A stretch of DNA of 64,000 bases from an uncultured Spirochaetales bacterium (GCA_964415795.1 CAYQBN010000004.1:35144-99143), one strand, 5' to 3'. Counted from the stretch's first letter, positions 12,382 through 63,822 are shown. Notes: a model not told the origin generated them from the sequence alone. Program-made: numbers and translations.

Positions 12382-12560
12382 CCAGAGTTAACAGCCACCG
12401 GAACCACATCGTATCTCTTAACCGCCATTTTTCTAACTTTTTCCTCTTGCAATTCATCTTCGTTTCGCATACCGTGATTTCATCAAGGGAACAATGACCG
12501 GTAGAAACAGTGCCTACGCACGATAAGCGGCGTTCATCAACTTTTTCGACGGAGGGCATC

Positions 12561-28659: not shown

Positions 28660-28668
28660 GATCTCCTC

Positions 28669-38517: not shown

Positions 38518-40313
38518 TTGCCTGTGGTGTTCTCGATAAGCGTTTCCCGCAATCTCTTTTTCTCCTGTTTGAGCCGCTGTATTTCGGCGATCGCCTCGGG
38601 CGACCCATCGGAGGAGAGATCGCTCACCGTCCGGTCGATGTCCGCTATCCTCATATTCAAAAGAAGCAGGTGGAAGCGACGCCGAGCGGCAGTATCGTCC
38701 ATCCGCGCGAACGCCGCGGCCTCCTCACCGTCCGACGACAGACGCTCTATCACCGCCCGCAACGCTTCGGCATCGTCGGCGTCGTGCGCCGCAAGGAGCG
38801 CGGCACGCAACTGCGATTTGTCATACTTCCCCAGAAAGGCGCATTCGCGGCTGTCAAGAGCCGGAATAAGGACCGGATGCGTCGCAACGACGAGGAGCAA
38901 CTCACGATAACCCGCCGCGGGATCGTCTTCTGGTCCCTTCCGATCCGGCGCCGCATCCTCCGACCGTCCCCCACGCGCGAGCCCGCCTTGTTCCTTCCGC
39001 ATAAGGTCCTGCAGGTGGCGCACCAGCTGCTTTGCCTCCCCCGCCTTAACAGAGGAATGCGTGGACGCGACCTTTTCGACGAAACCAAGATACTCTTCGC
39101 GCCTATAGGGGAGCACCGATCGTAAAAGGCGCGCCATCTCGATCTTCGCCGCCTCCCGTTCAGGGATGGGATCCGCCGAGAACACCCGGGCGGTCAAGTC
39201 GGCGAGATAATGTTGGAGGATGTCTCTCCGTGCCCCGGAGAGGATCTCTTCGATCCGTCGCCGCCCATCGGGACGCCGAACAAGGGAATCAGGGTCTTCC
39301 TTTTCATCGCCGCTCTCGATAAAGGCGGCGCGGAGATCCATCTTCTCCGGTCTCTTGAGTTCCAATACGCGACGCATCGCGGCACGCCCTGCCGCATCGC
39401 CGTCGAGAAGCATCACGACCGGCACACCAAAGCGCTCAAGTAAGGCGAGATGCTCCTCGGTAACCGCCGTACCAAGCGCCGCGACCGCGGTGGAAAACCC
39501 ATGGACATGCAACGAGATGACATCGAAGTACCCCTCGGTGACGATGATGTAGCGATGCTCTTTGAGTCCCTCGCGGACGAGGTTGATGCCGAACAGGCTG
39601 GATCGCTTGGAGAACACCGGAGTCTCCGGCGTATTGAGGTATTTCGGTTCACCATCGCCAAGGATACGCCCGCCGAAGCCGATAACTTGCCGTCGCTGAT
39701 TGACGACCGGTATCATGATGCGATTATAGAAAAAAGAGCGTATTCGACCGCTAGCATCGATGCGTGCAAGTCCTCCCCGTTCCATTGTCTCCCCGGAGAC
39801 GCCGTTTGACCTCAGGAAAGAAACCAGTTCGTCACCGTCACCGACCCAGCCAAGGCCGAATCGCTTAACCGCATCCGATGTGACACCACGGCTCTCGAGA
39901 TAGGATGACACCTGCGGCGCTGTGGCGAGTTTGCGGTGAAAAAAAAGAGCCGCGAGTCGGTTCGCCGCTATGATGAGGCGCCGTTCCTCCTCCGCGCGGC
40001 CCGCAGCCGGTGTCGTCGTCTCCTCCAACAGTTCGCGAACGCCGAACTCGGATCCGATCTTACGAACCGCCTCGCGGAACGAAAGCGATTCGATCATCAT
40101 CAGGAATGTGATCGCGTTGCCATGTGCACCACACCCGAAGCAGTGGTAGAACTGCCGTTCCTCGTTCACCGAGAAAGAGGGGGTTTTCTCTTTATGAAAC
40201 GGGCAGAGCCCCACATACCGTCGTCCAGTTTGCTGGAGTTTCACATGGCGACGCACTACATCGACGATATTGACGCGCTCCTCTACGATACGGTTTGCGT
40301 CCACGAGTGCCAC
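38514..40313 (-). CDS. dnaG: DNA primase DnaG
   Basis: Zinc ribbon [40 protein letters not shown] (EGYFDVIS...DGDAAG). GTG start inferred at 40313. Confidence 0.85.
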
Positions 40314-40519
40314 AGAAGATCGCCGCTCAAAAAATTCTGTGGCATTATAGTGTAGGGCACCTAAAAGTCAAAAATTGCATATCATCGGTCGTTTTTAGCA
40401 TTTTGTTAGAGATTCGAGACTGTTGGGAATTCGTCTTGACTTTTGACGGGAAAGGGAGGCCAAGAATATGGAGGAGAGAGAGGTACGGAGTTTTATCACC
40501 TTTCATCAACGGAGGTACC

Positions 40520-40981
40520 ATGAGCCACACGACCGACCTGCTCAAAAAGATCGAGCCCGATCGAAGTAACCTCATCAAGGCATTACAGACGGTGCAAGAA
40601 GATGTCGGCTATGTGTCCGACGAAGCCATCGAGGCCATAGCTCGCCACTTCTCCGTCGCACCGGTCGAGGTCGAGGGTATCGTTAGTTTCTACGCCCAAT
40701 TCAAGCGGGTAAAACCGGGGAAGTACCGCATCTCGGTCTGCGACGGTACCGCTTGTCACATCAAAGGGGCAACGCTCGTCTCGGGATGGATCACCGAAGA
40801 ACTCGGCATCAAAGGAGGCGAGACCGACAAGGAGGGGCTCTTCTCACTCGAGGTGGTGGCCTGCCTCGGCTGCTGCAGCCTCGCGCCCGTCATCTCGATC
40901 AACGGGAAAGTGTACGGCAACCTTGAACGCAAGACAGTACTGAAAATCCTCAAAGACTACCGAAAGGGAGGTGCCGCATGA
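40520..40981 (+). CDS. NuoE/HydC-like thioredoxin-fold [2Fe-2S] subunit
   Basis: CDGTACHIKG...ACLGCCSLAP cluster motif. Internal Met with GGAGGT RBS. The ORF-track 5' extension through the intergenic region is rejected. Confidence 0.75.
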   Translation: MSHTTDLLKKIEPDRSNLIKALQTVQEDVGYVSDEAIEAIARHFSVAPVEVEGIVSFYAQFKRVKPGKYRISVCDGTACHIKGATLVSGWITEELGIKGGETDKEGLFSLEVVACLGCCSLAPVISINGKVYGNLERKTVLKILKDYRKGGAA

Positions 40982-42714
40982 CCATTCGTCGCATCAACAT
41001 CGGTGTCAGTTCGTGCGGTATCGCCGCCGGCGCAAGTGAAACGGCCGCGTTCCTCAAGAAGGAGATAACCGACATTCCCATCGTCGAAGTGGGCTGCATC
41101 GGTCACTGCTACGCCGAGCCGCTCGTCGAGGTGGTGACCGACAAGGGGTCGGTGTTCTATGAAAAGGTCCTCCCCAAGAAAGAACACCTCGACCGCATCC
41201 TCGGCCTGAAGGATGAAGGACGCCTTACCATGCGATCTCAGCGCACCGAGCGGGAGAAAATAAAAGTGCTCGCGCTCGCGGGGCGCATCGCAATGACCTC
41301 GATCGACGAGTACATTTCACACGATGGCTACCAAGGCCTGAAAAAGGCGCTCGCCATGAAACCGGCCGACATCGTGGAGGAAGTCAAAAAATCGGGACTT
41401 CGTGGCCGCGGCGGCGGCGGATTCCCGACGGGAACGAAATGGGGGTTCCTCGCGGCGAAACAGGCACCGGAGAAGGTGCTCATCTGCAACGCGGATGAGG
41501 GTGACCCGGGGGCGTTCATGGACCGTTCCCTCATGGAATCGGTACCCCATCAGGTCCTCGAAGGCATGCTCATCGGCGCATGGGCGACCGGCGCAACGAA
41601 ACTCTTCATCTACTGCCGCGCCGAGTACCCACTTGCAATTAAAAACCTTAAGATCGCCATCTCCCAAATCTACGAACGGAAGCTCAATGACCTCAATGGT
41701 CGCATTGTCGAATTCAAACTGAAGGAAGGAGCCGGTGCCTTCGTGTGCGGCGAAGAAACGGCGATGATCCATTCGCTCGAAGGAAAACGCGGCACGCCGC
41801 GGTTCCGTCCCCCCTACCCGACCGACAGCGGCTACCACGGATATCCCACCGCGATAAACAATGTCGAGACCTTCGGCAACATTCCCCTTATCCTGCGCGA
41901 AGGAGGCGAGGAGTTCGCGAAACTCGGTACCGCCGGATCGAAAGGCACCAAACTGTTCGCTCTCGCCGGCGATGTCAAGTATCCGGGACTCGCCGAGGTC
42001 CCAATGGGGGTCACCATCGGCGACATCGTCTACGAGATCGGTGGCGCCGACCGCGACGCGGTCAAGGCGGTTCAGATCGGCGGCCCGTCAGGTGGCTGTA
42101 TCCCCGCCGAAAAGTTCGACGCTGTCGTCGACTATGACTCGCTCAAAAGCCTCGGCGCCATCATGGGCTCCGGCGGTCTCATCGTCATCGGCAAGAACCG
42201 CTGTATGGTGGAGACGGCGCGCTACTTCCTCGAGTTCACGACGCGCGAATCATGCGGCAAGTGCACCTTCTGCCGCATCGGCACCAAACGAATGCTCGAA
42301 CGGCTCGAGAAGATAACGCAGGGAAAAGGCACCGACGAAGATGTCGCGTTCCTCGCCGATCTCGGTCCCAAGGTCATCAGGGGATCGCTCTGCGGCCTCG
42401 GCCAAACGGCGCCGAATCCGGTCATCTCGACGCTCCGCTACTTCCGGCACGAATACGACGCTCACACCAAGGAAAGCATATGTCCGGCGCTCCAGTGCAA
42501 CGCCCTTTCCGATGTCTCCATCGATCTCGAGAAATGCGTGAAGTGCGGACTGTGCGTCAAAACCTGCCCAGTCAAGGCGATAAGCAAGGATTTCGTCGTA
42601 GACAACGCCATCTGCACTCGATGCAACTCCTGCATCGAGGTATGTCCCAAGAAAGCGATCAGCCGGGTGAAGAAAGGAACGGGGTTCTACGGCACGAAAG
42701 GAGGCGCACAATGA
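40978..42714 (+). CDS. NuoF/HydB-like NAD(H)- and FMN-binding subunit with N-terminal thioredoxin-like domain and C-terminal 2x[4Fe-4S]
   Basis: FMN site GLRGRGGGGFPTGTKWGF. SLBB/4Fe-4S CGKCTFCRIG. C-terminal ferredoxin motifs CVKCGLCVKTCP and CTRCNSCIEVCP. Confidence 0.8.
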   Translation: MTIRRINIGVSSCGIAAGASETAAFLKKEITDIPIVEVGCIGHCYAEPLVEVVTDKGSVFYEKVLPKKEHLDRILGLKDEGRLTMRSQRTEREKIKVLALAGRIAMTSIDEYISHDGYQGLKKALAMKPADIVEEVKKSGLRGRGGGGFPTGTKWGFLAAKQAPEKVLICNADEGDPGAFMDRSLMESVPHQVLEGMLIGAWATGATKLFIYCRAEYPLAIKNLKIAISQIYERKLNDLNGRIVEFKLKEGAGAFVCGEETAMIHSLEGKRGTPRFRPPYPTDSGYHGYPTAINNVETFGNIPLILREGGEEFAKLGTAGSKGTKLFALAGDVKYPGLAEVPMGVTIGDIVYEIGGADRDAVKAVQIGGPSGGCIPAEKFDAVVDYDSLKSLGAIMGSGGLIVIGKNRCMVETARYFLEFTTRESCGKCTFCRIGTKRMLERLEKITQGKGTDEDVAFLADLGPKVIRGSLCGLGQTAPNPVISTLRYFRHEYDAHTKESICPALQCNALSDVSIDLEKCVKCGLCVKTCPVKAISKDFVVDNAICTRCNSCIEVCPKKAISRVKKGTGFYGTKGGAQ

Positions 42715-44744
42715 GCATCACGATAACGATAGACGGCAAGAGATTCACCGCCGAAAAAGGCGAGACCATTCTCAAAGTCGCCGAGCGGAACGGCATCGCC
42801 ATTCCGACGCTCTGTTTCAGCGAGAAGGTCACCAAGAACACCGCATGCTTCGTGTGTGTCGTCAAAGACCTCAAGACAGGACGCTTCGTCCCCTCTTGCG
42901 CCATGGAGGTGACCGACGGCATGGAAGTCGCCTCCGACGTACCGGAAGTTCGCGAAATGCGGCTCACGGCGCTCAATCTCATTCTCTCGGAGCATCGCGG
43001 CGACTGCGAAGCACCCTGCACGATAGCCTGTCCGGCGCATGCTCAGGTCGAAGAGTATGTTCGCGAAGGGCGTAAGGGAAACTTTCTCGAGGCGCTTAAG
43101 ATCATCAAACAGCGCATCCCGCTTCCCCTCTCGATCGGCCGCGTCTGCCCGCGTTTCTGCGAGAAAGATTGCCGCCGCAATGTCGTCGACAAAGAGGCGG
43201 TCGCCATCAATGACTTCAAGCGGCTCGCCGCTGACCTCCACTATGATTCGTACCTCGAGGATCTGCCGCCGCTTACCGGCAAAAAGGTCGCTGTGGTCGG
43301 CGCCGGTCCCGCCGGTCTCTCGGTCGCTTATTTCCTGCGTCTGAACGGCGTGGCAAGCGACCTCTACGACAAGATGCCAGCGGCAGGCGGCATGCTCCGC
43401 TACGGTATCCCCGAGTACCGCCTCCCCAAAGCGATCCTCGACAAGGAGATCGCTCATTTCACCAAAATGGGTGGCATTTCGTTCATATTCAACAAAAAGA
43501 TCGGGAAAGACCTCTCTCTGGACGACCTCAAAAAGAAATACGACGCGATCGCCATCACCGTCGGCTCATGGAAATCGAGCGCGGCCGGGGTTGAGGGAGA
43601 GGAACTCACCATCGGCGGCATCCAGTTCCTCGAAAAGATAGCCCGCGCCGGCTGGAAAGGCGACAATCCCGGCAAGACGATCGTCATCGGCGGCGGCAAC
43701 ACGGCGATGGACTGTCTGCGCACCTCGGTCCGCCTCGGCTCGAAGGATGTCACCTGCTTCTACCGCCGCACCGAGGCCGAGATGCCTGCCGAAAAGATAG
43801 AGATCCACGAGGCGAAGGAGGAAGGAGTAAAGTTCGAGTTCCTCGTCGCGCCGGTAAGACTGCGCCGCGAGAACGGGAGACTCGTCCTCACGAGCCAACG
43901 GATGAAACTCGGTGAACCGGACGCATCAGGACGCCGTAAGCCGATACCGATCCCCGGGTCGGAGTTCGATACCGTCGCCGACACCGTCATTGCGGCGATC
44001 GGCCAAAAAACGGTGGTTCCTCTCGGCATCAAGGCGACCAAGTGGGGCGATGTGGAGGTCAACAAGGATGACTGCCGCATGGAGGGAGCGGTCTTCGCGG
44101 CGGGCGACTGCGTGAGCGGCCCGGCCACGGTCGTCGAGGCGGTCGCCGGCGGACGGCGGACGGCGTTGTCGATCCTTGCGCACCTCGCGGGACAGCCTTT
44201 CAAGGAACCCTATCTTCTCAATGTCTCCCGCGGCAAATGGCAGAGCCTCGCGAAAGACGATCTTGTGTTCCTCAAAGAACCGCCCGAACGGAAACGGACA
44301 CCGCAACGGCTCATCCCGATAAAAGAACGAACTGCCACCTTCAAAGAGGTCGCCTTCACCTTCACGCCTGAAGAGATCAAAAAGGAGGGCGAACGCTGTA
44401 TCGAATGTTCCTGCACCGCCAAGGGTGACTGTTTGCTCAAGAAGCACAGTGAGACCTATGTCGCCAAACCGGAGGCGATCGTTGGAGAAAAGCCGAAGTT
44501 CGGTTACGATGCGCGTCACCCCGAGATCATCCTCGACCGTGGCAAATGCATCAAGTGCGGCATCTGTGTCAAGGTGTGTTCCGAGGTCGTGAACCAAAAC
44601 CTCCTCGGTTTCAAGTTCCGCGGTTTCGCGACCCGCATCGACACCGCCTTCTCACGCCCGCTCCCCTCGCCGCTCTGCCGCGATTGCGGGAAATGCATCG
44701 AGGAATGCCCGGTCGGTGCCCTCGATTGGAAGGTAAAGAAATAG
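42711..44744 (+). CDS. fusion of NuoG-type N-terminal [2Fe-2S] domain, GltD/NfnB-like NAD(P)H flavin oxidoreductase and C-terminal 2x[4Fe-4S] ferredoxin domains
   Basis: Start ATG 42711 with AAAGGAGG RBS; ATGA-style overlap with the preceding gene. CFVCV...C 2Fe-2S. Dinucleotide-binding KKVAVVGAGPAGLSVAYFL. Ferredoxin motifs CIKCGICVKVC and CRDCGKCIEECP. The ORF-track upstream extension (42252) is rejected. Confidence 0.7.
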   Translation: MSITITIDGKRFTAEKGETILKVAERNGIAIPTLCFSEKVTKNTACFVCVVKDLKTGRFVPSCAMEVTDGMEVASDVPEVREMRLTALNLILSEHRGDCEAPCTIACPAHAQVEEYVREGRKGNFLEALKIIKQRIPLPLSIGRVCPRFCEKDCRRNVVDKEAVAINDFKRLAADLHYDSYLEDLPPLTGKKVAVVGAGPAGLSVAYFLRLNGVASDLYDKMPAAGGMLRYGIPEYRLPKAILDKEIAHFTKMGGISFIFNKKIGKDLSLDDLKKKYDAIAITVGSWKSSAAGVEGEELTIGGIQFLEKIARAGWKGDNPGKTIVIGGGNTAMDCLRTSVRLGSKDVTCFYRRTEAEMPAEKIEIHEAKEEGVKFEFLVAPVRLRRENGRLVLTSQRMKLGEPDASGRRKPIPIPGSEFDTVADTVIAAIGQKTVVPLGIKATKWGDVEVNKDDCRMEGAVFAAGDCVSGPATVVEAVAGGRRTALSILAHLAGQPFKEPYLLNVSRGKWQSLAKDDLVFLKEPPERKRTPQRLIPIKERTATFKEVAFTFTPEEIKKEGERCIECSCTAKGDCLLKKHSETYVAKPEAIVGEKPKFGYDARHPEIILDRGKCIKCGICVKVCSEVVNQNLLGFKFRGFATRIDTAFSRPLPSPLCRDCGKCIEECPVGALDWKVKK

Positions 44745-52576: not shown

Positions 52577-53701
52577 TTAGTCGCTCCCCGACAAATGTCT
52601 ATCGAAATCGGCGACCACCTTCCGGAAAGATTCTTCATCGCGCTGAGGAATGCGCGTCTTCACGCTCCCATGATGCTTGAAAGGATCGATGACCCCCTTT
52701 CGGCCAAGTCCCACCCGCTCGAGTTGGTAGTGGAGATGCGGCGCGAAGGAGCGGCCGGTGTTGCCGACATCGGCGATGTGCATACCTGCCCCAAACCGTT
52801 GTCCCGGCTTTACATATACCTTGTCAAGATGCAACAGGATCATCTGCAACGGCGGATCGGTATCGAGCCGCGCCGACACCGAATGGCCATTGTAGCGCAT
52901 CTTCCAATTCACCCGTTCGACGACACCGCTCCACGGAGCATAGACCGGCGTGCCGACCGGCGCCTTGAAATCTATGCCGTCGTGCCGCGGGCGACGGTCA
53001 CGGAGAAGAGAGGTTATCTGTATCCATCCCTTGATCGGCGCATTCTTCATCATCGGCTCGACACGGGTCCCGTCAGCATAGTAGTAGGCAGGGAATGGCC
53101 AATCGGACGCATGGAACTGATAGATGCTCAGCCCCTTTCCCAGACGCACCGAACGGTAACGCATTGCGAGAATTTCTATCTCATCAGGGAGATCCTTACG
53201 CGTCTGCTGTTCCTCGCTGGGAACGATGCGAAAAACAAGGTCGAGCATGTCTCCCGGATAGACCTCCTTGCGCATGTCGAGGCTCCATACGAGGTTACGC
53301 GCCACATGAGCCGATAGGCGCTCGGCAAGCCTTTTTATTCCTGCCTCCTGCGCAATGCGGGCGACATCCTCGTTATCCGAAAAAGTATCAAAGAACGACG
53401 ACTTGACGGCCATTGAAAGACGATAGCGTTCTAGCCGCGCCGGAAGAGAAGGAGGTGACGATGGGCGCGGTAAGGTATCGGTCACTCGATCATCAGGAGC
53501 GACCGGATTTTCCTTATCCGGAGAAGGAACGACATCTTCGGCCCTACCCGACGCGTTGTCCGGACGGGTCGCAACAACCATTGCGGCAAGGATAAGGAAC
53601 GCACCGAGCGCAACCCCGAATAGGAATGGCCACCGAACACTCGACCGTAGAGGGGACTTTCCTTCAGGTATCTGGTATCCTTCGGTCATTTCGGTCTCCA
53701 T
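52577..53701 (-). CDS. M23-family metalloendopeptidase with N-terminal membrane anchor
   Basis: HxxxD and HxH motifs of the LytM fold (HDGIDFKAPVGTPVYAPWSG...HLHYQL). Confidence 0.75.
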   Translation of the reverse strand: METEMTEGYQIPEGKSPLRSSVRWPFLFGVALGAFLILAAMVVATRPDNASGRAEDVVPSPDKENPVAPDDRVTDTLPRPSSPPSLPARLERYRLSMAVKSSFFDTFSDNEDVARIAQEAGIKRLAERLSAHVARNLVWSLDMRKEVYPGDMLDLVFRIVPSEEQQTRKDLPDEIEILAMRYRSVRLGKGLSIYQFHASDWPFPAYYYADGTRVEPMMKNAPIKGWIQITSLLRDRRPRHDGIDFKAPVGTPVYAPWSGVVERVNWKMRYNGHSVSARLDTDPPLQMILLHLDKVYVKPGQRFGAGMHIADVGNTGRSFAPHLHYQLERVGLGRKGVIDPFKHHGSVKTRIPQRDEESFRKVVADFDRHLSGSD

Positions 53702-55581
53702 ATCCGGTCGGCCTCTATCAATTTCTGATTGAGATAAACGACCTGCAGAAGGCTCTTCAGCCGTTCCTGAAACGCCGAAACGACCTTACCGGCAAGGTTA
53801 TTGCGTTCATTGGGATCCTCACGAAGGTCGTAAAGATACTCCCGGTTGCTCCGGAGGTGATGGACATACTTCCAACGCCCCCCCTCAAGAACGCCGAGGT
53901 AGGTGCCGTTGTAGGGCTGAATGAGGAATATCGGCTGCTGCGGCTTAGCAGAAAACATCGAGACTCCGCGGAAATGATGTCGCTCCAGGCGAATCCCCAC
54001 AAGATCGAGGAGGGTCGGCGCAATGTCCATTTGGCAGAACGCGTGATCGGTCACCCGCGTCGGCTTGAATCTCCCCGGCGCAATGAGAAGGAAAGGAGTG
54101 CGGAAAAACTCTTCATACCATGCCGACTCGTTGTGAAAGTAGCCATGTTCGCCGAGCGGATAACTATGATCGCCGGTTACGACGACGATGGCGTCCTTGA
54201 ACTGAGGCCGCTTTGACAACTCCTCGAAGAAAACAGGAAGTTGTTCGTCCGTCAGGCGAATACTATTCGCATAGTGCTGCGGCAGGTTCTTCGCTTCGGG
54301 ATAAATGCGCCGCTTCTCGACCGGGACCTTGTCGAAACGCATGTGGTTCATGACGGTGTGGAGGACCACAAATGCCGGCTTAGTTCCTTCGGCAACCTCC
54401 TTTTTACCATCAAGATACTCAAACACCCGGCGGTAGAAAACCTGATCTTCCATACCCCAGCCCCAGATCTGCGACTTCTCCTCCTCGCTGAGGAACGGCA
54501 GAGCCGAGAGTGCCTCATCGAACCCGTTCTTCTTGACGAAGTTCCCGGTGTTATCAAAATTTATGTTCTTGTATGCCTTGAAAAAAACGGTGTAGTACCC
54601 GTTGTCCCGCAGAACCTGCGCAAGCGATTGAAAATGGGTGTTGGTGTAACTCGTGAAAACCTTCTGCTTGAAACTGGGAATGAGTGAAAAGAGCGTTGCG
54701 AACTGTCCTTTCGATGACTGAATGGAATTACTGTAGAAGCGTTCAACATAGAACCCTTCTTTTATCTTTTCGTTGAAGAAGGGGGTGTATATCTCGCCGT
54801 TGGGCGCTTTCGTCTCGACGACTTTCGCAGAAAAGGACTCTATTTCCAGAAGGAATATCGAAGGGAAGCGCTCCGGCGGCCGCGAGGTCAATAGCTTGTT
54901 CTCGGTGGTTATAAAAGGGTAGGAATCGGGATCGATGTCGGCGGAGAGATGGTACATCTCATCGCGGCGCAGGTAATCGTATGACGAACGGAGCAACATG
55001 CCAAAGTCGTCATGGAGATTGTAAGAGCTAAGTAAGAGGAGGACATAGAGGGGGATCGCGGCACCGGCCGCGATATAGCGCTTCCAGTTCACCGTCCACT
55101 CCCCCATGACGCGGCGGCGAGGATAGGGGATGGCACACACGGAGGCGATAAGCGCGACGCCGATGAGGAGGACATGAACGCTGATGCTGTCCACGATGAC
55201 CAGCAGCGCCTCCTCGTTGAACGTTTCCTCGGCGTTATCGAGGAAAAGCGCGATGTCGAACGGTATCTTGGCGCGGAAATGGTAGGTGGCGAAGAGGTGG
55301 TAGAGCGCCGCATAGAACCCCCACAGCACGAGATACGAGCGGCGCCCCCATGAAAAGAGAGACCCGATGACGAACCAACCGAGGAGCACGCCGACGAAAC
55401 TTCCTGCGATGAGAGCGATGTCCTCGAGGGTGAAAGAGGGATGGATGACCCCGGAACGAGTCTGAAACGAAAGGTAGTTGAACCAAAAAAGGATCGTCAG
55501 TACAAGAAACGAAAACGGGATTTTCATCAAAACACGCAAAAGGCTCTCTTTTACCCGTCCCCAATCAACACGATGAAGCAT
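53686..55581 (-). CDS. LTA-synthase/phosphoglycerol-transferase family membrane sulfatase (LtaS/MdoB-like)
   Basis: 5 N-terminal TM segments plus an extracellular alkaline-phosphatase-like domain (VVTGDHSYPLGEHGYFHNES). Start chosen to avoid overlap with cysE; exact start uncertain (alternative 55527). Confidence 0.65.
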   Translation of the reverse strand: MLHRVDWGRVKESLLRVLMKIPFSFLVLTILFWFNYLSFQTRSGVIHPSFTLEDIALIAGSFVGVLLGWFVIGSLFSWGRRSYLVLWGFYAALYHLFATYHFRAKIPFDIALFLDNAEETFNEEALLVIVDSISVHVLLIGVALIASVCAIPYPRRRVMGEWTVNWKRYIAAGAAIPLYVLLLLSSYNLHDDFGMLLRSSYDYLRRDEMYHLSADIDPDSYPFITTENKLLTSRPPERFPSIFLLEIESFSAKVVETKAPNGEIYTPFFNEKIKEGFYVERFYSNSIQSSKGQFATLFSLIPSFKQKVFTSYTNTHFQSLAQVLRDNGYYTVFFKAYKNINFDNTGNFVKKNGFDEALSALPFLSEEEKSQIWGWGMEDQVFYRRVFEYLDGKKEVAEGTKPAFVVLHTVMNHMRFDKVPVEKRRIYPEAKNLPQHYANSIRLTDEQLPVFFEELSKRPQFKDAIVVVTGDHSYPLGEHGYFHNESAWYEEFFRTPFLLIAPGRFKPTRVTDHAFCQMDIAPTLLDLVGIRLERHHFRGVSMFSAKPQQPIFLIQPYNGTYLGVLEGGRWKYVHHLRSNREYLYDLREDPNERNNLAGKVVSAFQERLKSLLQVVYLNQKLIEADRIWRPK

Positions 55582-55586
55582 GCTGA

Positions 55587-56471
55587 TCAGTGCCCTCCGT
55601 GCACCTTTGCGTGAGGAGGCACATCCTCGGTGACCCAAGTGTTACCGCCGATGACGGCATGGTGTCCGATGGTGATACGACCAAGTACCGTCGCGTTGGC
55701 ATAGATGACGACCTCGTCCTCGACAATGGGGTGACGCGGGATGCCTTTGATGGGTCTTCCGTTCTCATCGAGCGGGAACGACTTGGCACCGAGGGTGACT
55801 CCCTGATAGATCTTCACCCCTTTGCCGATGATCGAAGTTCCTCCCACAACGATACCGGTGCCGTGGTCCATAAAGAACTTCTCCCCTATCTTCGCTCCCG
55901 GGTGGAGATCTATGCCGGTCTTGGTGTGCGCCATCTCGGTGATGATGCGCGGGATGAGCGGCACCTCGAGCTCGTGGAGTTCGTGGGCGATGCGGTAGTT
56001 GGTCATCGCATAAATGGAAGGATAGCAATAGATCGTCTCGCCGCGGCTCGTCGCGGCCGGATCGCCTTCGTACGCCGCCTCGACATCGGTTGCGAGCAAA
56101 CGCCGCACCTCAGGAAGGCGGGTGATGAATTTTTCGGCGACTTCGCGAGACCATTCCTCGCACCGGCGGCATTCCTCCTCGCAGGAGACCTCGCACGAGA
56201 AACACTTCCCGCGGAGGATCTCCTCGCGCAAGGACGCATGTACGCGGTTCAACTTCGCGCCGATCGCGTAACGGAGCGTCTCGGGGGTGAAATCGTTTTC
56301 GCCGAAGTAACCGGGGAAAAGGACCTGACGAAGCAGTTCAACGATCTCGGCGAGCCGCTCGACCGAGGGCATCGGGCGGTTGTTGCGTGACAGATGCGCG
56401 AGCGAAGCGTACCCGCAGATGCTGGAAAGTTCGGCGACCACCGCGTCGAACGGGTGTTTGTTTCCGGCCAT
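55587..56471 (-). CDS. cysE: serine O-acetyltransferase CysE
   Basis: SATase N-terminal helical domain plus hexapeptide LbH repeats (GIVVGGTSIIGKGVKIYQGVTLGA...HHAVIGGNTWV). Confidence 0.75.
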   Translation of the reverse strand: MAGNKHPFDAVVAELSSICGYASLAHLSRNNRPMPSVERLAEIVELLRQVLFPGYFGENDFTPETLRYAIGAKLNRVHASLREEILRGKCFSCEVSCEEECRRCEEWSREVAEKFITRLPEVRRLLATDVEAAYEGDPAATSRGETIYCYPSIYAMTNYRIAHELHELEVPLIPRIITEMAHTKTGIDLHPGAKIGEKFFMDHGTGIVVGGTSIIGKGVKIYQGVTLGAKSFPLDENGRPIKGIPRHPIVEDEVVIYANATVLGRITIGHHAVIGGNTWVTEDVPPHAKVHGGH

Positions 56472-56501
56472 GACGACCTCCCGCGTTCGTTTGCGGGGGT
56501 C

Positions 56502-56529
56502 ATTCTAGAAAAAGAGACTCCGAAGTCAA
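56502..56529 (-). promoter_or_regulatory. sigma70 promoter for cysE (TTGACT-16-TAGAAT on minus strand)
   Basis: Read on the minus strand within the 169-nt gap. Followed by a CCCGC-N8-GCGGG hairpin that overlaps the GGAGG RBS. Confidence 0.45.
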
Positions 56530-56640
56530 CGATGAGGAGAAACTATTTGTGGGAAACAGCAAACACGGACCCCTTCCCTCCATCCCGTTCCTGCACTTGG
56601 CGATGTCCATCAGAGAGGATACGATGTTATTTCGCGTTTC

Positions 56641-59600
56641 CTATCCCCGTCTCCGCGGGTAGCGGATATAGGGACGGATCTTCTCGTTGATGTTCTTTGA
56701 GGTCCCGTCGTAGTTGAGCGTGACGACGGGGATGCCGGCGAACTGCTCGATGTGCGGGACCATCGCCTCGGTGACAAGGCCGGCGCAACAGAAGGCAGGG
56801 TTCACCTGCACGAAGAGCGCAAGGTCAGGATAGTGCTTCACCAAGGCGGCTATCTTCACGAGGTTGTCGAGCGATTCTCCGGCATGGTGGGGCGTGAGGA
56901 AGAACTCCCTGAGCACGGCATCGTGGTCGATATCGGGAAGCGCAAGCGGTTCGTCGAAGAGTTCACTGAACAGGCGATAATAGGACTTCTCAAGTTGCCC
57001 GACGAGCGTCATGACCGTCTTGGCGAACAGGATGTCGCCATAGTGGCCGCCGGCGAACCAGCGCTTGATGTAGCTCGGCAACGCCAGTCTGATGAGTTCG
57101 GTGAACGGCGTCGTCACCGCCTCGCCGCCGTATTCCTCGATACAGCGGATGAGGTGCTGGTTGAAGACATCGTTGTCGCGGGCATACATGTCCCCGAAGA
57201 TGGCCACTTGAGGCCGCCTTCGGGTCTCATCCGTACCAATGGCCTTGAGCCGTGCAACGATCCGCGCGACCGCATCCTCCTTTTCGGCACCGCCGATGAA
57301 TGTGTTGTAGAGAAGGTTCAGCGCATCGGCAAGCACCCTGTCGGTCTCTCCCTTCTGTTTTTCATAAGGTCGTATCCGGCACCCCGCTTTGCGAAGCATT
57401 CCGCCGAAGAGATTGGCGAAGTAGGTGTCCACCGACGCCGGTACCGACAAGTCGTTCATGGTCAGTTCGCCGAGATAAACCTCCACCTTCTCCATGCCGC
57501 CATCGTATGTTTCGAGAAGACTCTTTATCAGGTGCGGATACATCGGGATGTTGCAGGGAATGTAACTTTCGAACATCCACACCGCGGTCATTGCCGGATC
57601 GAGTCCTTGATCTTCGATGTAATCGGCATAACTCTGGGCGATGATGGTGACCGGGAGGCACTGGCCCGTGTGTTTCCGGATCCCCCGTTTGATCGTCCGA
57701 TCGGTGAGCGGGACCAGGCGCGCATCGACCCCTTCCTTGATGAAGATCGCCTCGTACAATTTTGACACAAAGGGATCTATGCACGGGAACAGGAGCGTCT
57801 TGCGCTGAGGTAATTTCGTCGCAATCGTTGGGACCACCGGAAGCGGCTCACGCTTGTGGGGCGCTGAGGTCCCGCGCACCGCATGGTTACGGAAGGCGCG
57901 CACCGCCGCTTCGATGCGGGTCTCGTAGCCGACATTCGAGTCGTGCTCATCTACTTCGAGAACGAGGTAAGGCTTGCCGTAGTGCTCCATGATGCGCCGG
58001 AAATACTCGAGCGCGAACGAGTCGGGGGCACACTTGAACGAGGTGACATAGACAGGATAGAGTCCCGGTGTATGCGCGGCGAAGAGCGCTGCCTTGAGTA
58101 TCTTCGCCGCATAGTTCCAGTGAAGTCGTTTGAGAAGCGGATCTATCTCGGCGATCTCCTCCTTTCGGTACGGAAGCATGTCCTGCGAGAAGACCGAAAT
58201 GCCGAGACGCGAGAAGATGTCGGGCACCCCCTTGTTCATGGCAGGCTGGAGCACCGTATAGGGACGACCGAGAAGGACGACCGCGATATCGTTCTTGCCC
58301 TTCCGTGGCATCGTCTCGCGCTCATAGATGTTACGGAGGCGTCCCTTGCGTTCCTCGAAGAACGACCGTGCGCTCTCGTAGGCGTTGTAGATCTCCCAGT
58401 AGTTGCGGTTGAGGTGGGGCTTGAGCGCGCGGAACAGATCTATCTTCGCTTGGAACGACTGGTGGTCCACCACCGGCGAGATGACACGCCGACGGATCGG
58501 CTCTTCGAGTGCGCCAAGGACCAGCGCGGCGGCATACTGCGTGTAGTAGCAGTAGAAGCGGCGCACCTCGCGATCCTTCTCTCTCGCCTCGAACGACGAA
58601 GGAAGAAAGATGAGGTCGCACTTGTCAGCGAGATGGGCCACATGGCCGAAGAAGGCCTGCATCGGCGCACAGAACTCGGCACGCGACAACCGTTTTCCCT
58701 CCGCGACCGCTTCGACGAAGTTCTCGCTCGTGACGGTCTCGATGCCGAGAGCGCCAAAGAAGAAACGCCAGAACGGCATCTCTTCGGCAAGGTAGAGAGC
58801 ATTCGGTATGCCGACCTTCAGCGACGCTTCTCGCCGCGGAGAAAAGGCGGGAATCTGGAACACGGCGCGCCGCTCACGGATGAGATCGTAGGCGGCACGA
58901 TCGGGACCGACATAGCGCCGCGTATCGTAATCGCGACCGCACAGGAAGCCGAAGGCGACCGTCTCGCCCTGCACGGTGATCTTCGTTATCTTGCAGTGGT
59001 TGTGACAAAGTTCGCACACCTCGTGTTCGAGCGGTATCTCCTCCCGCCACATACCCGTCCCGCGGAAGGAAGAGCCGTTCGCCCGGTTCTCGGCGAGGAT
59101 GAGCGCGCACCCGAGCGCCCCGGTAAGGTGACAGAACTTCGAAACGAAGATCGGCTTCTTCAATCGCTGCTCGAACGCGGCCACGAGCGCCTTGTTGCGC
59201 GCCGTTGCCCCTTGAAAGCAGATGTTCTCACCGATGTGCGCCTCTACCGCGACCTTGGAAAGATAGTTCTCGCGTACCGCGTGGAGCACCGCCGCGAGCA
59301 CCTCGTCGGTCGTGTACCCTTCCATGAGATAGGTGGTGATATCGCGTTCCATGAACACGGTGCACCGGTCGTTCGCCGCCGGCGCCGGTTTTTCGAGGGC
59401 CCGATCGGCGTATGCAGAAAGCGGTACGCCGAGCCGCTTCGCCTGTTCCTCCACAAAACTGCCGGTCCCGGCGGCGCAGACGGTGTTCATCACCGAGAGG
59501 GTGACCATCCCCTCCTTCATCGTCGTGAATTTCGCGTCCTGCCCCCCGATCTCGATAATGGTGTCCACGGCGGGATTGAGTTCGTAGGCGGCACGGGCAT

Positions 59601-60828
59601 GCGCCGTTATTTCGTCCACTACCAGATCGGCGGCGATGATGCGCCCGATGAACTTGCGCCCCGAACCGGTCGTCCCGACGCCGCGGAAGGAAAACGAAGT
59701 TCCCTGCCGCGCCGCAAGGTCATCGATCGCCGCGAAAAGAGCCTGCACCGCGTTCAGCGGCCGTCCTGAGGTATAGGTATAAAAACCGGCGATCACCCTC
59801 CCGTCAGCGCGCGTGAGAACCGCCTTGGTGCTCGTCGACCCAATGTCTATCCCGAGATAGACCTCCTCGTGCGGAGCAAGCGACTCATAGAGGTCGCATT
59901 CAACCGGCGCAGGACCACGCTGAGGCTCGAAGACCCGATGTTCCCTCGAAGAGAAGTCGGGATATGGCGAACGCTCTAACTGAAGGGGCGGGTATGCGTA
60001 GGCGCGCGTACGACGTTCCTCGACGAACAGATCGTTCCACGAAACGACTCCGATCGGCGGCAGGCTTCCCTCCTCCCAGAGAAGCAGTGCCGCCCCAATC
60101 GCCGGATAGAGATGCGCATGTTCGCCGACGATCGGTTCGATGGAAAGGAGCCGTGAGAGGTGCCGCACCACCGCCTTGTTGAGCGCGACACCCCCCGCGA
60201 GAACGAGCGGCTGACGCAGTTCTCGGTCGAGCCCGAGCGTGTCGATGATGTTCTTCGCAAGGCCTTCACAGAGGCCGTCGCTTATTTGACCGACCGAGTA
60301 GCCCTCCTGTTGGGCGTGGATGAGATCGGTTTTGGCGAAGACGGCGCATCGCGTCGCGATCTTCGGCGCGAGCCCTTCGTTGCAAAAAGCGACGGTGCTG
60401 AGCACCGCAGCGCTCCGCAGGTTGAGCCGCCGCGCTTGCTGATCGAGGAATCCGCCCGTTCCGGCGGCACACGAGGAGTTCGATCGGAAGCGTTCGTATT
60501 CCCCCGCGGCATTGAAAGTGATGAGACCGAAGTTCTCGCCGCCGACGAACAGAAGCGAGCCAACATCGGGATGAAAGCGCTTCACCGCCGCGATCATGGC
60601 GACCTGCGTATCAAAACGGGGGACATCCCGGAGCAGTTCGGGGCCGGAAAGGGTCGCCGCGACCGCCGAAACCGAAGCGATGTCAATCTCCTCGAGCAGG
60701 CTCTGCAAGGCCGTTCGGATCGCCCCTTCATGGGGACGATAGGCGGTGAAAAGCACCCTCCCCTCTTCGTTCACGACGGCAAGGGAAACGGCCACCGAAC
60801 CGACATCGACGCCAAGCACCTGTTTCAC
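56641..60828 (-). CDS. 1395-aa fusion: two BcrA/BadF/HgdC-type ('CoA-substrate-specific enzyme activase') ATPase domains plus DUF2229-like and 2-hydroxyglutaryl-CoA-dehydratase D-component-like C-terminal domains
   Basis: GTG start with AAGGAG-N6. Two ASKHA ATPase units (LGVDVGSVAVSLAVV... and LGIDIGSTSTKAVL...) each with the CxxGTG[GS]F motif (SSCAAGTGGFL, NTVCAAGTGSF). Large Cys-containing C-terminal region. Confidence 0.75.
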   Translation of the reverse strand: MKQVLGVDVGSVAVSLAVVNEEGRVLFTAYRPHEGAIRTALQSLLEEIDIASVSAVAATLSGPELLRDVPRFDTQVAMIAAVKRFHPDVGSLLFVGGENFGLITFNAAGEYERFRSNSSCAAGTGGFLDQQARRLNLRSAAVLSTVAFCNEGLAPKIATRCAVFAKTDLIHAQQEGYSVGQISDGLCEGLAKNIIDTLGLDRELRQPLVLAGGVALNKAVVRHLSRLLSIEPIVGEHAHLYPAIGAALLLWEEGSLPPIGVVSWNDLFVEERRTRAYAYPPLQLERSPYPDFSSREHRVFEPQRGPAPVECDLYESLAPHEEVYLGIDIGSTSTKAVLTRADGRVIAGFYTYTSGRPLNAVQALFAAIDDLAARQGTSFSFRGVGTTGSGRKFIGRIIAADLVVDEITAHARAAYELNPAVDTIIEIGGQDAKFTTMKEGMVTLSVMNTVCAAGTGSFVEEQAKRLGVPLSAYADRALEKPAPAANDRCTVFMERDITTYLMEGYTTDEVLAAVLHAVRENYLSKVAVEAHIGENICFQGATARNKALVAAFEQRLKKPIFVSKFCHLTGALGCALILAENRANGSSFRGTGMWREEIPLEHEVCELCHNHCKITKITVQGETVAFGFLCGRDYDTRRYVGPDRAAYDLIRERRAVFQIPAFSPRREASLKVGIPNALYLAEEMPFWRFFFGALGIETVTSENFVEAVAEGKRLSRAEFCAPMQAFFGHVAHLADKCDLIFLPSSFEAREKDREVRRFYCYYTQYAAALVLGALEEPIRRRVISPVVDHQSFQAKIDLFRALKPHLNRNYWEIYNAYESARSFFEERKGRLRNIYERETMPRKGKNDIAVVLLGRPYTVLQPAMNKGVPDIFSRLGISVFSQDMLPYRKEEIAEIDPLLKRLHWNYAAKILKAALFAAHTPGLYPVYVTSFKCAPDSFALEYFRRIMEHYGKPYLVLEVDEHDSNVGYETRIEAAVRAFRNHAVRGTSAPHKREPLPVVPTIATKLPQRKTLLFPCIDPFVSKLYEAIFIKEGVDARLVPLTDRTIKRGIRKHTGQCLPVTIIAQSYADYIEDQGLDPAMTAVWMFESYIPCNIPMYPHLIKSLLETYDGGMEKVEVYLGELTMNDLSVPASVDTYFANLFGGMLRKAGCRIRPYEKQKGETDRVLADALNLLYNTFIGGAEKEDAVARIVARLKAIGTDETRRRPQVAIFGDMYARDNDVFNQHLIRCIEEYGGEAVTTPFTELIRLALPSYIKRWFAGGHYGDILFAKTVMTLVGQLEKSYYRLFSELFDEPLALPDIDHDAVLREFFLTPHHAGESLDNLVKIAALVKHYPDLALFVQVNPAFCCAGLVTEAMVPHIEQFAGIPVVTLNYDGTSKNINEKIRPYIRYPRRRG

Positions 60829-60867
60829 GCATTACTCCTTCAGAAAAAAATGAAGCGGCAACGGTGC

Positions 60868-61077
60868 CTAGTGGTCGTGAGTGCAACCGGGGCAACACCT
60901 CTTCGCGCCGGCAGGACACACCGACGCCGCCTCCTTCGTGATGACCGCCCCGAGCGACACCTTCTTCGCGAGCTCACCGCCGCACCGTTCGCATACGGTC
61001 AGCGGCGCATCGCTCATCTTTTGCGTCACCTCGAATTCGGCCCCGCACGACCGGCACACATACTCGTAAATAGGCAT
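60868..61077 (-). CDS. FmdB-family zinc-ribbon protein (CxxC...CxxC)
   Basis: MPIYEYVCRSCGAEFEV...CERCGG matches the FmdB/TIGR02605-type N-terminus. AGGGAG RBS. The ORF-track upstream Met is rejected. Confidence 0.6.
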   Translation of the reverse strand: MPIYEYVCRSCGAEFEVTQKMSDAPLTVCERCGGELAKKVSLGAVITKEAASVCPAGAKRCCPGCTHDH

Positions 61078-61091
61078 TGCACGACTCCCTG

Positions 61092-61553
61092 TCACCGCCC
61101 CGTATGCCCGAACCCACCGGCACCGCGCCCCGACGCCGCGAGATCCTCTGTAGGCACGAACACCGCCTTCTCGACCCTCGCGAGAACAAGTTGCGCGATC
61201 CGGTCACCCTTCTTCACTACGAACTCCTTATCGGAAAGGTTGGCGAGGATTACTTTCACCTCTCCGCGATAGTCGCTGTCTATGGTGCCGGGAGAATTGA
61301 GCACGAATATGCCCTCACGGAGCGCAAGCCCCGACCGCGACCTGACCTGCAGCTCCCAACCCGTCGGAATCTCACAAAAAAGACCGGTCGGAACGACACC
61401 CCATCCATGAGCAGGAATGACCGCATCTGTTGCGGCGCAGACATCGGCACCTGACGCCCCCTCGGTTTGGTAGGCAGGGATCGGCAGAGCGGCACCAGCC
61501 CTTGCTATCTTAACGGAAATACCGTCAGCCGACTTTAGGGTGTTTCTTGGCAT
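61092..61553 (-). CDS. dut: dUTP diphosphatase
   Basis: Internal Met MPRNTLKS...ISVKIARAGAALP...GASGADV...GTIDSDYRGEV...AGGFGHTG motifs align with E. coli Dut. The ORF-track 5' extension is rejected. Confidence 0.8.
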   Translation of the reverse strand: MPRNTLKSADGISVKIARAGAALPIPAYQTEGASGADVCAATDAVIPAHGWGVVPTGLFCEIPTGWELQVRSRSGLALREGIFVLNSPGTIDSDYRGEVKVILANLSDKEFVVKKGDRIAQLVLARVEKAVFVPTEDLAASGRGAGGFGHTGR

Positions 61554-63822
61554 CGCCGTGCGGTTTACGGTCACGATGTTTGTCCTCGCGGCGATCGTTC
61601 TTGTGATCGCGGGAATGCTCGCGGTCGCCGTCGCGCCGGTCGCGTTCAGCGTGCCGTTCACGGCGCGGCTCTTCCTCAGTGCTCTCGCTGGAGAAGTCGC
61701 GTTCGAAATCGGAAGGCTTCATACTCAGGCGGAACTTTCCACCCGGCTCCACCTCGACGCAGATGACGCGGACCTTCTGACCTATCGAAAGGACATCGCG
61801 CACATCCTCTATGCGACGGTCGGCGATGCGACTGACATGGAGCAACCCGACGACGCCCGGCAGGACCTCGACGAAGGCACCATAGTCCTCGATGCGGGTA
61901 ACGGTCCCCTCGTATATCTTTCCTTTTTCGGCCTCGTCGGTGAACGAACGAACCAACGCGATCGTGGCCTCGAGGACCGACGCGTCGCGCGCCGCGATGA
62001 GCACCGAACCGTCCTGCTGCACCTCTATCTCGGCGCCGGTCTTGTCTATGATGGACTTAATGTTCTTGCCGCCGACGCCGATGAGGTCCCGTATCCGCTC
62101 GGGATTTATCTGGATGGTCACCAGCTTGGGGGCGAGCGGCGAGAGTTCCGGGCGATGCGCTGGAAGCGCCTTCTCCATCTCCCCGATGATGTGGAGACGG
62201 CCTTCCCGCGCCTGAGCAAGCGCCCGTTCCATCACCTCGCGCGGCAAACCGTGTATCTTGATGTCCATCTGTATGGCGGTGATGCCGTCGCGTGTTCCAG
62301 CCACCTTGAAATCCATATCACCGAGATGGTCCTCGTCACCCATGATATCGGAAAGGATCGCGTAGTTCTCGTTCTCCTTGATGAGGCCCATCGCGATGCC
62401 GGCGACATGCTTCTTATAAGGTATTCCTGCGTCCATGAGCGCGAGGCACCCCGAGCAGACGCTCGCCATCGAAGAGGAACCGTTCGACTCGAGTATCTCC
62501 GAAACGACACGGGTAGTGTAAGGAAACTCTTCAGAAGTGGGCATGAGCGGCTTGAGCGCCCGTTCGGCGAGGTTCCCGTGACCGATCTCGCGGCGTCCCG
62601 GAGCCTTGAGACGGCTTACTTCGCCAACGGAGAATGGTGGGAAGTTGTAGTGGAACATGAATTTCTTGCTCGTCTCCTCGACGACGGTGTCTATCCGCTG
62701 TTCGTCGGAACCGACCCCGAGCGTTATCGTACCGAGCGATTGCGTCTCTCCTCGAGTGAAGATGGCGGAACCATGCACATTAGGAAGCACCCCGACCTCG
62801 ATCCAGATCGGACGGATATCGGTAGTGCCGCGGCCGTCTATCCGTTGCCCCTTCTCGGTGATCATGCGGCGCATGGTCCGCTTGAGGATCTCCTCAAAGA
62901 GTTTGTGCGCCCGCACCGTGGTCTTTTCGAGGTCTTCGCCTTCAATGAAGATGGTGCCGCTCTCGACCGCCTCTTTGATGCGTGCATCGACCTCGGCTTT
63001 GATCGTATCGATCGCCGCATAGCGTGCCAGTTTCTCACGAATAATAAGTGCTTCCGGTATCTTATCTGCGACGAAGAGTTCAATGAAGTTACGAAGGGCA
63101 GAGTCATCCTTGATTTCTGGAGGCTGCCGTTTCACCGGAGCCACTTGGGCAACGAGTGACTCTTGCAGAGTAATGAGCGGCTGGATCGCCTGATGACCAA
63201 AGGCAAGCGCCTCGGTCATCTCGGCCTCGGTCGCCTCGCGTGCCTCCCCCTCCACCATGATGATAGAGTCGCGGTTCGCTGCCATGACGATGTTGAGGCG
63301 CGCATCCTTTTGAAGTTCCGGAGAGGGGTTGATAAGATAATGCCCCTCCTTTAGGACGACGCGGACCGCTCCGATGGGACCGAGGAATGGGATGTCGGAG
63401 ACCATGAGGGCCGCCGAAGCGGCGGTGACCGCGGCGACACGGGGATCAGCGTTCTCGTCATGGGAGAGCAGCGTCACGATGATCTGTGTCTCGTTGCGAT
63501 ACCAGTCAGGGAACAGCGGGCGTATCGGACGGTCTATGATGCGCGCCGACAGCTTTTCGTCGGTGTTCGGCTGGCTTTCACGTTTCAAGAATCCACCGGG
63601 GAAACGGCCGGCGGCATAGAACTTCTCGATGTAATCGACCGAAAGGGGGAAGAAATCCTGCTCCGCGGGCGCTTCGCCCTTCGCGGCGACCACCGTAGCC
63701 AATAGGACGGTGTTGCCGTAGCGGCACCAGACGGCGCCGTCAGCTTGTTTGGCGTACTTGCCGGTCTCCAATGTGAAAGGAAGACCTTGAAAGTCAATGG
63801 ACTTGGCATGATGCGTTTTCAT
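61525..63822 (-). CDS. pnp: polyribonucleotide nucleotidyltransferase (PNPase) with an unusual ~55-aa Arg/Asp/His-rich C-terminal tail
   Basis: Two RNase-PH domains, KH and S1 (canonical MKTH...LETGKYAKQADGAV start). The tail RRERHAERDRRDGDREHSRDHKNDRREDKHRDRKPHGDAKKH overlaps the dut start by 29 nt. Confidence 0.9.
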   Translation of the reverse strand: MKTHHAKSIDFQGLPFTLETGKYAKQADGAVWCRYGNTVLLATVVAAKGEAPAEQDFFPLSVDYIEKFYAAGRFPGGFLKRESQPNTDEKLSARIIDRPIRPLFPDWYRNETQIIVTLLSHDENADPRVAAVTAASAALMVSDIPFLGPIGAVRVVLKEGHYLINPSPELQKDARLNIVMAANRDSIIMVEGEAREATEAEMTEALAFGHQAIQPLITLQESLVAQVAPVKRQPPEIKDDSALRNFIELFVADKIPEALIIREKLARYAAIDTIKAEVDARIKEAVESGTIFIEGEDLEKTTVRAHKLFEEILKRTMRRMITEKGQRIDGRGTTDIRPIWIEVGVLPNVHGSAIFTRGETQSLGTITLGVGSDEQRIDTVVEETSKKFMFHYNFPPFSVGEVSRLKAPGRREIGHGNLAERALKPLMPTSEEFPYTTRVVSEILESNGSSSMASVCSGCLALMDAGIPYKKHVAGIAMGLIKENENYAILSDIMGDEDHLGDMDFKVAGTRDGITAIQMDIKIHGLPREVMERALAQAREGRLHIIGEMEKALPAHRPELSPLAPKLVTIQINPERIRDLIGVGGKNIKSIIDKTGAEIEVQQDGSVLIAARDASVLEATIALVRSFTDEAEKGKIYEGTVTRIEDYGAFVEVLPGVVGLLHVSRIADRRIEDVRDVLSIGQKVRVICVEVEPGGKFRLSMKPSDFERDFSSESTEEEPRRERHAERDRRDGDREHSRDHKNDRREDKHRDRKPHGDAKKHPKVG

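Follow-up and report, generated by a model that had tools for sequence, protein, structure and literature searches.

The window analyzed here, a 64,000-nucleotide (nt) stretch of the genome of an uncultured Spirochaetales bacterium (GCA_964415795.1, CAYQBN010000004.1:35144-99143), encodes a protein of 1395 amino acids (aa) that, at the level of family function, is probably an ATP-dependent glycerolipid ester reductase of the PlsA/Ger family. This family is part of the benzoyl-CoA reductase (BCR) and 2-hydroxyacyl-CoA dehydratase (HAD) superfamily of radical enzymes, and the protein, a single polypeptide, is predicted to be oxygen sensitive. An earlier note on this DNA had seen in the gene an uncharacterized enzyme class with unknown substrates. 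This view does not hold, since the architecture is that of the published PlsA (plasmalogen synthase) and Ger (glycerol ester reductase), which were genetically validated between 2021 and 2025, both by heterologous expression in Escherichia coli (PMC13159169, PMC11150832, PMC12838417). With this gene, a known and genetically characterized family gains one more ordinary member. We document here its architecture, its metal-ligand cysteines, its modeled fold, and its full-length homology to a pls gene, with the following layout in window coordinates:

56641..60828, minus strand: PlsA/Ger-family gene of 1395 aa, complete open reading frame (ORF) with a GTG start, 155.5-kDa product
60049..60828, minus strand: ATPase (activase) domain 1, residues 1-260, phosphate-1 motif GVDVGS
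59083..59865, minus strand: ATPase (activase) domain 2, residues 322-582, motifs GIDIGSTSTK and EIGGQDAKF
58939..59016, minus strand: four-cysteine (Cys4) motif C605-x2-C608-x3-C612-x17-C630, between the activase domains and the catalytic modules
57829..58851, minus strand: catalytic module 1, residues 660-1000, DUF2229 with an HGD-D-like tail, predicted HgdA/B-like fold
56644..57828, minus strand: catalytic module 2, residues 1001-1395, predicted HgdA/B-like fold

An AAGGAG ribosome-binding site lies 6 nt before the GTG start. The ORF is uninterrupted, and over 100 homologs of 1387-1464 aa are collinear with its product. In its N-terminal half, Pfam family BcrAD_BadFG (PF01869) matched two stretches of the protein with 213 bits (cutoff 31.5), and the NCBIfam model CoA_E_activ scored 243 bits. 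Both ATPase domains were matched by sequence to HadI, HgdC, MbdQ, and the reductase of double-cubane-cluster proteins (DCCPs) in PDB searches, with E-values down to 1e-18 in domain 1 and 1e-29 in domain 2; the HadI, HgdC, and MbdQ matches ranged from 1e-13 to 1e-29, and these three were the best matches of domain 2. In alignments, C120 (SSCAAGTG) and C161 (TRCAVFAK) of domain 1 fall on both [4Fe-4S] ligands of the activators HgdC, HadI, and MbdQ, and C451 and C489 are their equivalents in domain 2. These four cysteines are kept in 118-120 of 120 aligned sequences as well as in distant relatives. The two BcrA/BadF/HgdC-type ATPase domains postulated earlier are thus present, each with both cluster cysteines.

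The two domains differ in their phosphate-2 motifs. That of domain 2, EIGGQD(A/S)K, was found in every sequence examined, whereas the motif of domain 1 (residues 94-100) is degenerate and reads FVGGENF, or VGGEKF in close relatives. At this place HadI and HgdC carry DIGGQD, the Listeria protein described below and the Planctomycete clade carry E-I/L-GGED, and the motif varies in other clades, too. Judged from the sequence, the loss of acidic residues from the domain 1 motif in the clade of the window protein appears to be one small novelty. The combination of a degenerate motif in domain 1 with a canonical one in domain 2 points to an asymmetry between the ATPase domains, with domain 2 as the presumed main hydrolytic site.

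The C-terminal half contains a DUF2229 domain (PF09989, residues 671-885) with a score of 147 bits (cutoff 29.4), followed by a match of about 50 residues to HGD-D (PF06050, residues 926-974) that, at 19.1 bits, stays under the cutoff of 28.4. Of the three Pfam families named in the earlier note, PF01869 and DUF2229 are therefore supported above their cutoffs, and HGD-D is not. Invariant cysteines occur three per module (C720, C760, and C933 in module 1; C1057, C1092, and C1347 in module 2), and this 3+3 pattern holds in alignments that include Planctomycete-type relatives with 29-36% identity and the Listeria protein. Across 120 close homologs the cluster, Cys4, and catalytic cysteines are all conserved; C1150 is conserved only in the closer clade. 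The Cys4 motif is invariant across the whole family, Listeria PlsA included, and is probably a metal site, binding either Zn or an Fe-S cluster.

Residues 585-1395 were modeled with AlphaFold2 from an alignment of 76 sequences; the model reached a mean predicted local distance difference test (pLDDT) score of 86.5 and a predicted template modeling (pTM) score of 0.86, and only the Cys4 region, modeled as beta-hairpins with low confidence, was poorly defined. According to this model, two HgdA/B-like modules fused to each other make up the C-terminal 800 residues. Their best fold matches were HadBC and BzdNO, with HadB and BzdN scoring at least as high as DCCP. Sequence profiles of each catalytic module returned no match in the PDB, so that the fold comparison alone links them to HAD, BCR, and DCCP. 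The expectation of a cysteine-rich, DUF2229/HgdB-like C-terminal half was thus borne out by the conserved cysteines, the DUF2229 score, and the predicted fold; neither these C-terminal features nor the Walker and cluster-helix residues of the ATPase units were found to be missing. Membrane insertion was considered and rejected: no transmembrane segment was predicted, and the maximum 19-residue hydropathy of 1.75 lies inside ATPase domain 2.

The order of these parts is that of PlsA. The BCR/HAD family includes the PlsA-PlsR pair of Clostridium perfringens, which is represented in many bacteria by a single gene encoding about 1400 aa; single-gene PlsA from Enterococcus faecalis, Lactococcus cremoris, and Bifidobacterium longum yielded plasmalogens in E. 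coli, and structures predicted for such proteins are ordered Act1-Act2-Red1-Red2 (PMC12838417, PMC9702350). The counterpart of catalytic module 2 is the separate protein PlsR in C. perfringens (PMC12838417). In the window protein, the reduction domain follows the activases directly, as DUF2229 at residues 671-885, and the Red2/PlsR equivalent at residues 1001-1395 has a high-confidence model and is collinear with the C terminus of the Listeria homolog. The name Ger was given to a "modified PlsA" from Thermotoga maritima and Desulfatibacillum alkenivorans, which produced 1-O-alkyl glycerol ethers in anaerobically grown E. coli, and diethers as well in a later study; these two Ger proteins carry the Pfam strings BBDHDDH and BBDHDHDH, with B, D, and H standing for PF01869, PF09989, and PF06050 (PMC13159169, PMC11150832). 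The corresponding string of the window protein is B-B-D-H, with a subthreshold H, and its 155.5 kDa matches the size of Ger, given that Ger and Ger2 of D. alkenivorans have 159 and 153 kDa (PMC11150832).

Sequence evidence for homology to a pls-type gene came from Listeria monocytogenes. A tblastn search against plasmid records uncovered chromosomal DNA of this species filed as a plasmid, and the 2.9-Mb record holds a single homolog of 1475 aa. BLASTP aligned residues 6-1394 of the window protein with residues 5-1402 of this homolog at 26% identity (E 1e-107), and all of the cysteines listed above except C1150 are kept. Listeria has been reported to possess pls orthologs and to form plasmalogens anaerobically (PMC9702350). 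This end-to-end alignment is direct evidence that the protein is homologous over its full length to a pls-type gene, albeit a distant one.

Several points weigh against the assignment to the PlsA/Ger family. Identity to the plasmalogen-type enzyme is only 26%, the 64-kb window offers no lipid-gene context, PDB searches returned no solved catalytic module of the family, and, to our knowledge, none of its enzymes has been reconstituted in vitro. Ger2, a close paralog of a proven Ger, gave no ether lipids in E. coli (PMC11150832), and homology alone is hence no guarantee of activity. Furthermore, Ger and PlsA are at present indistinguishable by primary sequence (PMC13274423).

A rival reading is a PlsA/Ger-like paralog that performs the same ATP-driven chemistry at another position or on another substrate, such as the sn-2 ester or a different acylated lipid, possibly in dependence on a partner protein. 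This is consistent with the low identity to the plasmalogen-type enzyme, with the several deep clades of the family, more than one of which contains Desulfobacterota, with the frequent occurrence of several homologs in Deltaproteobacteria (PMC13159169), with the clade-specific phosphate-2 motif of domain 1, and with the inactivity of Ger2 (PMC11150832), which the need for a partner may explain. We nevertheless consider such a paralog unlikely, as the metal ligands and the full architecture are all conserved with the pls-type enzyme, the 64-kb window encodes no second homolog of the 1395-aa protein, and Ger by itself makes both sn-1 and sn-2 ethers (PMC11150832).

More distant identities within the superfamily are less probable still. 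Database annotations like "acyl-CoA dehydratase activase" or "2-hydroxyacyl-CoA dehydratase," together with the HadBC and BzdNO fold matches and the three-cysteine pattern shared with HAD and BCR enzymes, would suit a fused 2-hydroxyacyl-CoA dehydratase or benzoyl-CoA-reductase-like enzyme that acts on a CoA thioester with its activator attached. Syntrophales, relatives of the host, ferment aromatic and fatty acids, which also speaks for such an activity. However, the HGD-D match is subthreshold, the BCR equivalog models score far under their cutoffs (BzdQ, 113 against 380; BcrA, 87 against 578; BcrD, 70 against 313), a search of the PDB with the module profiles brings up neither HAD nor BCR subunits, and the tested members of the same architecture made ether lipids. 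Neither CoA-transferase, 2-hydroxyacid dehydrogenase, nor aromatic-degradation genes are found nearby; the neighbors are pnp, dut, and genes for a zinc ribbon, an acetyltransferase, a sulfatase-family protein, an M23 peptidase, and peptidyl-prolyl isomerases (PPIases), and genes of CoA-ester metabolism are absent. Membership among the CoA-ester dehydratases and reductases was rejected on the model cutoffs and this gene context, and we regard the CoA-thioester activity as very unlikely. An equally small chance is left for the resemblance favored in the earlier note, a DCCP-type ATP-driven reductase of small molecules or unknown substrates. An HgdB-like fold and an archerase were found, as in DCCPs, and the DCCP reductase 7yyl_E matches the ATPase domains. 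DCCPs are defined by the motif CX19CX18-19CX29CX166-170CX32-34CX32C within about 400 aa, six cysteines of which bind an [8Fe-9S] cluster, whereas three cysteines are found in each catalytic subunit of HAD and BCR enzymes (PMC7317905). The seven-cysteine motif is absent from the window protein, which instead has three invariant cysteines per module; its likeness to DCCP is therefore one at superfamily level only, and membership was rejected on this motif. In addition, HadB and BzdN are at least equal to DCCP in the fold comparison, and DCCPs have 380-420 aa with a separate reductase, or occur as fusions of about 550 aa, but not as four-module proteins of 1400 aa.

If the window protein is a PlsA/Ger-type enzyme, its action may be pictured as follows, with substrate, electron count, and product adopted from the literature or inferred. 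The two fused HgdC-like ATPase domains would form an internal pseudo-dimer holding one [4Fe-4S] cluster via C120/C161 and C451/C489, to which reduced ferredoxin or flavodoxin would donate one electron. Binding and hydrolysis of ATP, the latter probably mainly in domain 2 in the clade of the window protein, would transfer this electron to the catalytic half at a very low potential. There, each of the two HgdA/B-like modules would carry a [4Fe-4S] cluster on three cysteines, leaving one iron open, and the sn-1 acyl ester carbonyl of a membrane phospholipid (phosphatidylethanolamine or phosphatidylglycerol) would undergo ketyl-type radical reduction at the open iron. Two electrons and two protons followed by dehydration would yield a vinyl ether, the plasmalogen expected of PlsA, and two further electrons the saturated 1-O-alkyl ether expected of Ger. 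Reduction followed by dehydration is the scheme proposed for PlsA (PMC8788747). It is tempting to speculate, although the odds are rather low, that proteins of this clade are archerases with one active site and a different stoichiometry of ATP per electron, that they use a substrate other than the sn-1 phospholipid ester, or both.

As a rule of thumb, Ger-type proteins lack a second reduction-domain match (bioRxiv 10.64898/2026.06.23.733905). DUF2229 occurs in one stretch in the window protein and in two in Listeria PlsA, which leans mildly toward Ger and would slightly favor an alkyl ether as the product over a vinyl ether, although sequence cannot decide between the two. Searching the literature for ether lipids of Syntrophales or Smithella brought up no relevant reports.

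Among the matches listed, the closest homologs are from Smithella, Syntrophales, and Desulfobacterota metagenome-assembled genomes (MAGs); the closest proteins are 59-64% identical, and the named ones belong to Smithella, Smithellaceae, and "Deltaproteobacteria" MAGs. In a neighbor-joining tree, the window protein groups with these Smithella-type sequences within a large clade of Desulfobacterota, Spirochaetota, and Bacteroidota sequences that are 45-52% identical to it; across the clade as a whole, Syntrophales included, identity to the window protein spans 45-63%. Planctomycete sequences and other clades follow at 28-36% identity, and Listeria lies far outside.

The genes surrounding the 1395-aa gene are the following:

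60868..61077, minus strand: FmdB-family zinc ribbon, 69 aa, 39 nt upstream of the 1395-aa gene
55587..56471, minus strand: serine O-acetyltransferase (EpsC/CysE type), 294 aa, 169 nt downstream of the 1395-aa gene
61092-61553 (end approximate), minus strand: dUTPase gene (PF00692, 106 bits), between pnp and the zinc-ribbon gene
61525-63822: pnp, neighbor of the dUTPase gene
53686-55638, minus strand: sulfatase-family protein (PF00884), 650 aa, directly downstream of the acetyltransferase gene

The three ORFs for the zinc ribbon, the 1395-aa protein, and the acetyltransferase were all recovered on the minus strand where the earlier note had placed them; the dUTPase gene had been absent from its account of the locus. 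The zinc ribbon scored 66.7 bits with the FmdB model TIGR02605 (cutoff 31.3) and 65 bits with Zn_ribbon_8, and its gene is probably cotranscribed with the 1395-aa gene. The acetyltransferase passed the EpsC-type model NF041874 (155 bits, cutoff 150), whereas its 164 bits with the cysE model TIGR01172 are under the cutoff of 211. Within the 169-nt gap ahead of the acetyltransferase gene lies a sigma-70-like site, TTGACT-16-TAGAAT (56529-56502); this one promoter-like site in the scanned region is no excess over shuffled sequences (mean 1.6). The acetyltransferase also has an N-terminal extension of about 125 aa outside the coverage of the EpsC and CysE models, with a Cys-rich stretch, CFSCEVSCEEECRRC, at residues 90-104 (window 56160-56204, minus strand).

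To assess the neighborhood, which the earlier note had considered worth checking for conservation, we compared 83 related loci, comprising 2 found by exact protein, 80 from the genome-scan matches listed, and the Listeria locus. Homologs of the zinc ribbon, the acetyltransferase, pnp, and the sulfatase-family gene occurred in none of the 83 within the flanks taken, and a motif search for FmdB-type ORFs found none adjacent to homologs in these loci. We therefore rejected the idea that the zinc ribbon and the acetyltransferase are functionally linked to the 1395-aa protein; they are incidental neighbors and, not being conserved ones, are not counted as part of the system. The sole recurring neighbors were Mla-like ORFs (ATP-binding cassette ATPase, permease, MCE protein, and VacJ-like lipoprotein) in 7-10 related loci, among them L017, L019, L023, and L043, with examples from Desulfobacter and Desulfobacula records; a ComEC-like gene also flanks the homolog in these loci. 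Both were recognized by eye, without a family search. The Mla-like context is lipid related, but may simply reflect shared ancestry.

Upstream of the zinc-ribbon gene, use of an upstream ATG would make the dUTPase gene overlap the pnp stop by about 29 nt, and on the other side the longest ORF of the sulfatase-family gene overlaps the acetyltransferase gene by 52 nt. The sulfatase-family protein may be an LtaS- or phosphotransferase-type enzyme using lipid head groups; beyond its gene lie those for an M23 peptidase, two SurA-like PPIases, and an AmiC-type amidase. Otherwise, the window, with pnp, dut, rpoD, dnaG, era, and der, is ordinary core chromosome of an anaerobe, as a hybrid-cluster (prismane) protein and several ferredoxin-type Fe-S proteins also indicate. 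The former and an adjoining 4Fe-4S ferredoxin-domain protein are encoded at 27004-29580 (minus strand) and fit an anaerobic lifestyle, as do the Smithella, Syntrophales, and Desulfobacterota homologs of the 1395-aa protein. A thioredoxin-like [2Fe-2S] ferredoxin protein (40295-40981, plus strand) and an 830-aa protein with flavin, [2Fe-2S], and 4Fe-4S domains (42252-44744, plus strand) could constitute a low-potential electron-supplying module. Farther away, an 1820-aa ORF, whose sole Pfam match is a thrombospondin type 3 repeat, precedes a 567-aa ORF without a match (12510-19676 for both, plus strand), and the two may encode a large pair of surface or secreted proteins. In a 949-aa ORF (7108-9957, minus strand), HEAT repeats accompany a weak match to the TLC ATP/ADP transporter, a pairing that is odd for a free-living anaerobe.

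PlsA/Ger enzymes enable anaerobic bacteria to convert ester-linked membrane lipids to ether lipids. If our assignment is true, an uncultured anaerobe whose protein has Syntrophales-type closest homologs has the capacity to synthesize ether-linked membrane lipids. Among widely used environmental and palaeoclimate biomarkers are non-isoprenoid alkyl glycerol ethers and branched glycerol dialkyl glycerol tetraethers, whose producers are only partly known. Since Ger homologs have already been reported as widespread in deltaproteobacteria by a published survey, the gene adds one more candidate producer of ether lipids and no new principle.

Of the closest known systems, DCCP and its reductase (YjiM/YjiL of E. 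coli) share with the window protein the fold superfamily and the ATP-dependent archerase partner, but differ in the seven-cysteine motif, size, and subunit organization. HadBC/HadI, HgdAB/HgdC, BzdNOPQ, and MbdONPQ resemble it in three cysteines per catalytic module, and the activases HadI, HgdC, and MbdQ match its ATPase domains by sequence; in the window protein, in contrast, four subunits are fused, a Cys4 motif is added, the catalytic modules are undetectable by sequence profile, and a CoA-ester gene context is missing, and the tested PlsA/Ger members act on membrane glycerolipids. PlsA and PlsA-PlsR (C. perfringens CPE1194/1195; Listeria locus L083, 4192-8616) are collinear with it as Act1-Act2-Red1-Red2, have the activase, Cys4, and 3+3 catalytic cysteines in common, and belong to the same superfamily with presumed ATP-driven ketyl chemistry. 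Listeria PlsA differs by its 26% identity, two DUF2229 stretches, lack of an HGD-D match, 80 additional aa, and the absence of C1150, and its domain 1 phosphate-2 motif is the canonical ELGGEDAK as opposed to FVGGENFG. Ger (T. maritima Tmari_0479/AGL49404; D. alkenivorans SHJ90043), compared here by its published description, is likewise a single chain of about 1400 aa (153-159 kDa versus 155.5 kDa) with the same two BcrAD_BadFG domains, DUF2229, and HGD-D-like remnants, and it shares with the window protein the pattern of one DUF2229 stretch and an anaerobic host of the Desulfobacterota type.

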